A DNA stretch of 64,000 nucleotides. Source: Hemiscyllium ocellatum (taxonomy: Eukaryota). This document shows positions 4,094-5,148 of the stretch, piece after piece. Position 1 is the first letter of the stretch. Each line of letters begins with the position of its first letter. The position numbers and the translations under genes are program-made. The stretch lies in NCBI RefSeq assembly GCF_020745735.1, contig NC_083410.1:32338117-32402116 (forward strand), written 5' to 3'. The notes under the pieces are model-generated. The model saw only the letters and a list, made by a program, of their open reading frames with translations. It made no database searches and was not told the DNA's origin.

Positions 4094-4582
4094 TTCTTTT
4101 TGTTGTTAAAGACAATTTTATTTCTAATTTTACTGAAATATCTAAATAGCATCACTTGAAATCCATTCCAGAACCTTATTACACATCATCTGCTGCAGCA
4201 GGTGCATCACCACCCTTGGTATTTCGTGTATATGTGTGCTCTATGTTTGCACACCAACTTGATCATGCCTTTTGAAAGCAGCTCCTGGAGGGCAGCTCTA
4301 GCCAGTGAACCTCTGATTTTTAACCTTTCAGAGACAACAGCAGGCGTGATGAGTTTGTAGTTGGGTATCTCTTTCAACAGCTTATCGTATGTGGCTTTGT
4401 CAAACAGGATCAAGTTGTTCAGCTTGTCTCTTACTTTTCCTTTTGACCACTTCTTTTTCTTGACCTTGCCCCCAGTCTTGTTTACTGGATCTTTATCCTT
4501 TTTGCCTCCTTTGCCTCCATCTTTCTTCTTCTTATCATCTTTTGGAGGCATGTTGCTGCTTCAAGATGTCGGAGCCGAAAAG
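4094..4582 (-). pseudogene. RPS25: Full-length processed pseudogene of 40S ribosomal protein S25 (eS25)
   Basis: Intronless ORF from 4551, [11 protein letters not shown]...[17 protein letters not shown]...[24 protein letters not shown]; small deletions near the C-terminus shift the frame (the native [18 protein letters not shown] lies in another frame, stop at 4179-4181); 5' end CTTTTC (TOP-like) at 4582; AATAAA at 4117-4122; degenerate polyA ~4094-4107; 15-bp TSD at 4079-4093 and 4584-4598. Confidence 0.97.
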
Positions 4583-5148
4583 CGACACTCCTGTTCTTAG
4601 CTGTTAGCCAGGCCTCCCTGATTGGACCAGATTAATAGCCCCAAACAAGGAACTCATATTCCATGAGTTCCACCTGGCTGACCTCATTAGAATCACTAAA
4701 CATCCATGAAGTGTTCTGAGTGTTCAGCAGAGCAGAACCGTGTTCCAACACAGCCTGCAAACCCATGGCCAAATCCTCCACTCTCCCAGTACTAGCAAGC
4801 CAGAGGATCAGCACTGGTTCAAAAGACAGTGGAGAATGGCATGCCAGGAACAGCACCAAATATATTTAAAATAAGTTGAGAGATGATCTCACTCTCTTCG
4901 GAGATGTTATACATTGATACATAGACTGAGGAGTAATTTCCTATCATAGTTACTTCAATAGGTTTTAAGCAGAATGTATGCTTCCAAATCAGACAAATAT
5001 CTTTCCCTGTGGTCTCCCTGTTTTTCACTTTCCTTTTTCCTTACATCAAGCTGTTGGATCTCTCCCTCTCATGTCTCTCATTCCGCATTGAAACTCTGAG
5101 GACTTTGGCTCATCCTTAGTTGATGGTGATATGTTCAATTACAGCAAC

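Follow-up and report, generated by a model that had tools for sequence, protein, structure and literature searches.

Could the promoter of a long terminal repeat (LTR) be what a site-specific LINE gains by inserting there, and are the host mRNA copies delivered to the same point transcribed from it? Retrocopies are usually thought to land anywhere, without a promoter. In the stretch of Hemiscyllium ocellatum DNA analysed here (64,000 nucleotides, hereafter the window), the first-pass annotation placed an RPS25 retrocopy directly under an LTR promoter. It proposed that anything inserted at this site would gain a promoter and a polyA signal while disrupting the LTR element, which would explain the target choice and provide a route to expressed retrogenes.

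Read along the minus strand, the locus begins with the 5′ half of a Gypsy-type LTR (4584–4699), which comprises U3, the TATA position and the first copy of a target-site duplication (4584–4598). It is followed by a full-length RPS25 processed pseudogene with a short A tail (4094–4582; Pfam PF03297, E 5e-42, and the parent exons), the second duplication copy (4079–4093), a Tx1 LINE piece holding partial 5′UTR repeats, the start of ORF1 and an A-rich tail, with both ends cut (3335–4078), the third duplication copy (3320–3334), and the LTR 3′ half (3200–3319). The latter ends in CA, is altered at the initiator place (~3306) and carries AATAAA at 3249–3244; natural empty copies elsewhere join the two halves. 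The 15-nt duplication occurs exactly three times, once per junction, compared with a chance mean of 0.31 matches even when two mismatches are allowed. The five bases on either side of the LTR (4704–4700 and 3199–3195) differ at one place by eye; therefore, the LTR is solo, and the insertions did not disrupt a full element at this locus.

Direct reading of the minus strand confirmed the motif positions given earlier: the CCAAT box (4621–4625), the A-rich stretch GCTAAGAA (4601–4594), the RPS25 5′ end (4582), the ATG (4551–4549) and the LTR AATAAA. The first T of the TATA-position hexamer lies 26 nt beyond the CCAAT box, and the hexamer (4594–4599) reads TAAGAA, a non-canonical variant, as had been noted. 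The box and the duplication do adjoin, but they share 5 nt rather than following one another, and therefore the insertion cut inside the box. An imperfect inverted repeat around the CCAAT box is likewise present (arms 4651–4641 and 4625–4615, complementary at 9 of 11 places), but it represents a second, inverted CCAAT box of the family (ATTGG, found further upstream in 49 of 100 copies), whose counterpart in the window, the upstream arm (4641–4651), is degenerate and has lost the motif. Two other candidate promoter boxes were rejected: TATTAATC at 4637 (two mismatches) lies upstream of the CCAAT box, and TATAAATA at 3253 overlaps the polyA signal, where most other displayed copies have GTAAATAAA.

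We then asked whether the position is a TATA site in the LTR family as a whole. A search of the 3.98-Gb genome gave 1965 candidates for the 5′ half of this ~250-bp LTR, and among the first 30 matches to that half, the two halves abut in many empty copies. Both ends could be located in 29 empty copies, whose median length is 234 nt; their 5-bp flanks agree with at most one mismatch in 12 cases (shuffled mean 1.04, maximum 5), and a purine run precedes four of them. The TG..CA ends and the short flank duplication are those of a Gypsy-type LTR, and an RT_RNaseH remnant (PF17917, E 7e-7), also Gypsy-type, adjoins LTR copy L007. A 32-place pattern around the box had 737 exact matches. The first 100 listed (contigs C1–C4) form a sample that favours well-preserved copies. 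Among them, 70 have TATAAA as the hexamer, 13 have TAAGAA and 17 another sequence, which bears out the suggestion that this is a true TATA position. Furthermore, in the 79 empty copies of this sample, the A of an initiator pattern is found in 50 at 29 nt past the first T of the box (0.0037 per offset as background), although, as the copies are related by descent, this count shows the family layout and not 50 independent events. CCAAT lies 25–27 nt upstream of the box in 39 of the 79, and AATAAA or ATTAAA lies at +83 to +87 in 30. A TATA box with an initiator ~30 nt downstream is a core promoter, and these counts together give the family a textbook sense promoter layout, with the insertion site between box and initiator. 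In some copies (for example, L332), the opposed CCAAT boxes form a near-perfect hairpin 20–55 nt upstream of the cut, which could aid recognition or drive two-way transcription.

The predicted start 25–30 nt past the box does fall in the 5′UTR of the cargo: the family distance of +29 corresponds to 4570, within a predicted start region at 4567–4572 if the box works. Transcription from there would omit part of the pyrimidine tract at the 5′ end of the RPS25 copy. However, the insertion left no initiator match at this position, and the window copy lacks a consensus box with an initiator at the proper distance (TAAGAA, and nothing at +29).

The LINE piece in the window is 88–95% identical to full copies. 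In one of these, L068, ORF2 encodes an APE endonuclease followed by a reverse transcriptase (PF03372, E 4.5e-13; PF00078, E 6.7e-35), and ORF1 has a CCHC-like match below the curated cut-off (PF00098, E 9e-4; 19.6 bits against 20.8). The closest named relative of L068 ORF2 is the Xenopus TX1 149 kDa protein (Tx1L ORF2), at 55% identity over 100% of its length. Judged by these protein similarities, the inserter is a Tx1-clade LINE. The window piece is cut inside ORF1 and carries a tail; it probably arose by read-through that terminated in the following copy of an array. Elsewhere in the window, decayed copies of another repeat lie in both orientations at 381–1836, 5149–5724 and 9252–10035, with an RT-like frame at 5130–5774; these are probably CR1-type LINEs.

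How consistently does this LINE use the LTR site? Among the first 100 of the 737 LTR copies, 11 carry a LINE 3′ piece at the site, four carry other inserts and six have no detectable 3′ half; insertions at the site are always in sense. Conversely, a LINE 3′-end motif had 2485 matches; once arrays and one duplicated pair had been merged, the first 30 of these came down to 22 places. At 18 of these 22 independent 3′ ends, an LTR half was found in sense by BLAST, at two more it was seen by eye, and two are without it; in one of the latter (L330), the insertion, with its duplication, lies at a comparable A-rich motif that is not part of an LTR. An LTR half was also found within the retrieved stretch at 28 of 40 LINE-head loci. 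Tx1 elements have been called target-specific when one sequence type occurs in more than 20% of flanks (PMC4494074), and the 18 of 22 observed here place this LINE among them.

Several further features of the occupied sites were observed. Other tailed inserts of unknown origin, some recurring across loci, occur at L023 (~2070–2640), L037, L170, L191 and L236, and are candidate mRNA 3′ ends or non-coding passengers. At L129, a piece from the downstream half of the LTR (+37 to +91) was itself retroposed; it has a tail and a duplication and lies in the box of a different LTR copy. The A-rich tails mirror the local box variant by eye (uncounted), with G interrupting them at TAAGAA sites and T at TATAAA sites, as though the beginning of the target had been copied over and over (window 4100–4094 and 3352–3335; L013, L023, L191). 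When a full LINE enters an occupied site, 60 to more than 1300 nt of the neighbouring fragment are duplicated (L234, L239, L241, L245, L249, L250, L259, L266, L269, L270). The new 5′ end apparently finds its junction through homology, and the resulting duplications build pseudo terminal repeats and tail-less tandem arrays. Finally, one target-site junction is present 49 times genome-wide, following an A-rich tail in 29 of 30 rows inspected. Its spread by 3′ read-through from a seemingly single source array could mark the offspring of that array.

Ty3 and TRE5 tether to promoter-bound factors at tRNA genes, and one might ask whether the site here is similarly set by TBP or a CCAAT factor, rather than by sequence alone. 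A much diverged LTR at L274 lacks the family target motif but has an A-rich box with CCAAT 25 nt upstream of it, and it is still targeted at that box (one example only); in addition, the LINE's own target sequences vary widely among loci. On the other hand, the L330 insertion lies outside an LTR, and degenerate boxes are occupied as often as good ones: 15 of 70 copies with TATAAA and 6 of 30 with other hexamers are not empty (Fisher p=1.0), with LINE pieces in 9 of 70 and 2 of 30, respectively. Moreover, the purified endonuclease of the related Tx1L specifically finds its site on naked DNA in vitro (PMC1950540), so that targeting needs no promoter. Tethering is therefore unlikely in our view.

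The equal occupancy also bears on a broader alternative, in which the endonuclease happens to recognise a repeat that is long, abundant and harmless. The LINE would then have a promoter of its own, located in its 3′ region or in an upstream copy, and the TATA position would be a by-product. Such safe-haven targeting has been reviewed (PMC6719617), and Tx1L is a stringent element whose target does the host little damage (PMC1950540). An A-rich strand is what such enzymes cut, and on this view the chemistry accounts for the insertions being in sense. Canonical boxes show no excess of insertions, the L330 site is again consistent, and full LINE copies in tandem 7–8 kb apart are common. On the other hand, diverged LTR subfamilies with different downstream sequences are targeted at the same box. 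We regard this alternative as possible, and the starting points of the LINE transcripts, considered below, speak on both sides of it. The earlier proposal is supported in part. That the promoter is a reason for the target choice is plausible for the full-length LINE. The notion that any insert gains a working promoter is not supported, given the separation of box and initiator, the TAAGAA box in the window and the equal occupancy. Each of the 11 LINE pieces that were first inserts in the 100-copy sample is a non-coding 3′ remnant, for which a promoter is of no benefit.

Where, then, does transcription of the full LINE begin? We observed variable 3′-UTR-derived sequence in front of all 40 LINE heads, none of which begins at a fixed start of its own; this speaks against the safe-haven alternative. 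In two full copies (L235 and L255), the upstream fragment and a junction foreign to the locus lie within the copy's own duplications, which indicates that the RNA began upstream of the LINE. For a comparison of heads with the LTR, 29 loci were tried and gave 26 candidates; three of these were 3′ ends, leaving 23 true heads. The results show that 20 of the 23 resemble the LTR from the initiator onward, with scores higher than in any of 66 control windows (51 at best, control maximum 30; L032 is collinear over ~55 nt). The presence of LTR sequence beginning at the LTR initiator argues against a LINE that relies on its own promoter. Furthermore, retroposed pieces of the LTR downstream half, with a tail, were found at 12 places (13 rows, one double-counted), demonstrating that occupied sites are transcribed in sense in the germline.

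Several observations temper this picture. At least 10 of the 40 LINE-head 5′ extensions are local duplications and were not RNA-borne, and the source of the read-through could equally be a LINE copy lying upstream or the 3′ region of the LINE itself; in Drosophila HeT-A, the promoter lies in the element's 3′ region. The head starts cluster ~50–63 nt ahead of the junction, as a fixed own start would give, but inherited junctions, including the one present 49 times, also explain this clustering. A 13-nt ladder of 5′ starts (~−60, −49, −36 and −22, by eye), which LTR-driven transcription predicts, was dropped because identical junctions are inherited by read-through from few source loci; no parent–daughter pair with a 13-nt offset was found among 30 of the 49 junction matches inspected. 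Regeneration by a jump on the LINE's own RNA, a TART-like template switch, is likewise unsupported: in a test of little power, the best match (rank 1) to the 5′ extension was the 3′ end of the copy itself in 3 of 13 cases. This is a further point against the safe-haven alternative. Taken together, we put LTR-driven LINE transcription at slightly better than even. Borrowing is plausible from the sequences compared, and a LINE with its own promoter would also be compatible with them.

The proposed gain of a polyA signal fared less well. The RPS25 copy brought its own AATAAA (4117–4122), identical in parent exon 5 and 16 nt before the tail, and the LINE 3′ end also has an AATAAA. The ends of the 12 read-through fossils are scattered from +41 to +113, and two of the 12 lie 16–23 nt past the LTR signal, where that signal would set them. 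Therefore, the cargo does not depend on the LTR polyA signal.

Host mRNA copies reach the same site. The RPS25 search gave nine matches (four parent exon matches and five copies), and the RPS26 search gave 12 (three parent exon matches and nine copies). In the window copy, the five parent exons are joined, with a tail and a duplication, as in a processed pseudogene. Four young RPS26 copies, 93–100% identical to L190, all lie at the LTR site, which makes five of five young full-length RPS25 and RPS26 retrocopies; since the window copy and L190 were found via the LTR, the count without LTR bias is three of three. One old RPS25 copy has LTR sequence downstream, and eight other old RPS25 and RPS26 fragments (76–86%) have no LTR at their junctions. 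Three retrocopies (window 4583; L190; L193) have one G immediately ahead of their pyrimidine start. This G may have been copied from a cap, but the target sequence also permits a G there.

Is, or was, the RPS25 copy an expressed retrogene, transcribed from the LTR box with a start at ~4570? Its CCAAT box is intact and spaced as in the family, TAAGAA recurs among the copies (13 of 100) and is not private decay, the ATG lies 19 nt past the predicted start, and the copy has its own polyA signal. Compared with its five-exon parent, it carries eight substitutions and a 5-nt deletion (~4231–4236) whose frameshift replaces the C-terminus, with the S25 domain nearly whole ahead of it; six coding substitutions outside the deletion (four silent and two not, by eye) are unassignable to copy or parent and too few for a test of selection. 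However, the box departs from TATAAA at two of six places, the inverted CCAAT box is lost, the +29 initiator is absent and the reading frame is not intact. Similarly, all four young RPS26 copies have premature stops, including two directly under TATAAA. Of 22 sequencing runs considered, four hold the stretch, whereas the 18 RNA-type runs share 0.12–0.14 of its words; six runs were compared as contigs. One contig, from run X19, has the same 5-nt deletion with no mismatch, and at 95% likeness X19 also covers bin 4579–4601; contigs of X1, X5 and X11 (RNA-type, with other organism codes, and maybe insertion-less) do not cover that bin. No RNA contig among those listed bears the deletion, but their source organisms may lack the insertion, and such contigs can reveal neither transcription starts nor absence. 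We consider expression of this copy very unlikely; it is probably a silent, frameshifted passenger, that is, an ordinary pseudogene. With five of five young retrocopies disabled, the proposed route to expressed retrogenes finds no example here, and the five copies checked suggest that delivery to the LTR site has yielded no functional genes.

The reading that we prefer, with a probability of about 60%, is that a Tx1 LINE places itself and copies of host mRNAs in sense inside the TATA box of a Gypsy-type LTR, that full-length LINEs likely use that promoter, and that the RPS25 copy is probably unexpressed. The LINE endonuclease would nick the T-rich strand at the box, and the LINE machinery would reverse-transcribe at the nick whichever RNA it carries. 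The target site would be rebuilt at each insertion, so that arrays could grow. The upstream CCAAT–TATA half would start RNA polymerase II ~13 nt inside the first insert, reading into a full LINE. Each insertion would keep the upstream box whole and displace the initiator; consequently, output should depend on the quality of the box, which is poor in the window copy. A bolder version appears doubtful. In it, a promoterless Tx1 LINE would home on the TATA boxes of solo LTRs in their thousands, depend on the promoter that they supply and make pseudogenes site-specifically, dropping mRNAs under CCAAT–TATA so that retrocopies are born transcribed.

The young retrocopies here appear to be delivered to one position of a repeat family, beside a core promoter. 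The system could thus be used to ask why site-specific LINEs choose their targets, for a safe haven or for borrowed transcription, and whether retrogenes arise more often when a promoter is already at hand. If retrocopies were indeed born transcribed, new genes could arise by a route built into the genome. Developers of gene insertion tools may also be interested in a compact LINE of the endonuclease type that can deliver arbitrary mRNA to a defined site.

How does this system compare with known ones? The mammalian processed pseudogenes made by L1 are, like the window RPS25, intronless copies with a tail and a duplication. Retrocopies in non-mammals have been linked to CR1 or Tx1 content (bioRxiv 10.64898/2026.06.26.734816); the available text of that preprint does not mention targeting, whereas here the young copies cluster at a single position within one repeat family, adjoining a core promoter. 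In the literature searched, which did not include Repbase Reports or subscription journals, we found neither a Tx1 LINE at an LTR TATA box nor targeted retrocopies in sharks. R2 of 28S rDNA differs in its enzyme class and in its Pol I target. Like the LINE here, it is site-specific, relies on target transcription and is co-transcribed with its target (PMC4494074), but that dependence has been shown for R2, whereas for the LINE here we infer it. Tx1L, which inserts site-specifically into another transposon, Tx1D, and encodes the closest named protein (55%), has a DNA transposon as its target and not an LTR promoter (PMC1950540). Close parallels are also Tx1-8_Crp and Tx1-4_AMi of crocodilians and Tx1-Mar/SINEU, which are also Tx1-clade LINEs preferring LTR retrotransposon or transposon targets, with tandem insertion and with other RNAs mobilised to the same site; the two crocodilian families prefer LTR retrotransposons, and SINEs are carried to the same targets (Kojima 2015, PMC4494074). 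The same paper proposes transcription from the flanking target, as a transcribed target would spare the element its own promoter. Siting in a TATA box and host mRNA retrocopies at the target, both seen here, are not described for the crocodilian Tx1 families or Tx1-Mar in the available text of that paper (PMC4494074). LTR-targeting Tx1 families are thus already known from crocodilians (PMC4494074); what is new here is the site-specific delivery of host mRNAs and a target-specific Tx1 element aimed at an LTR core promoter.
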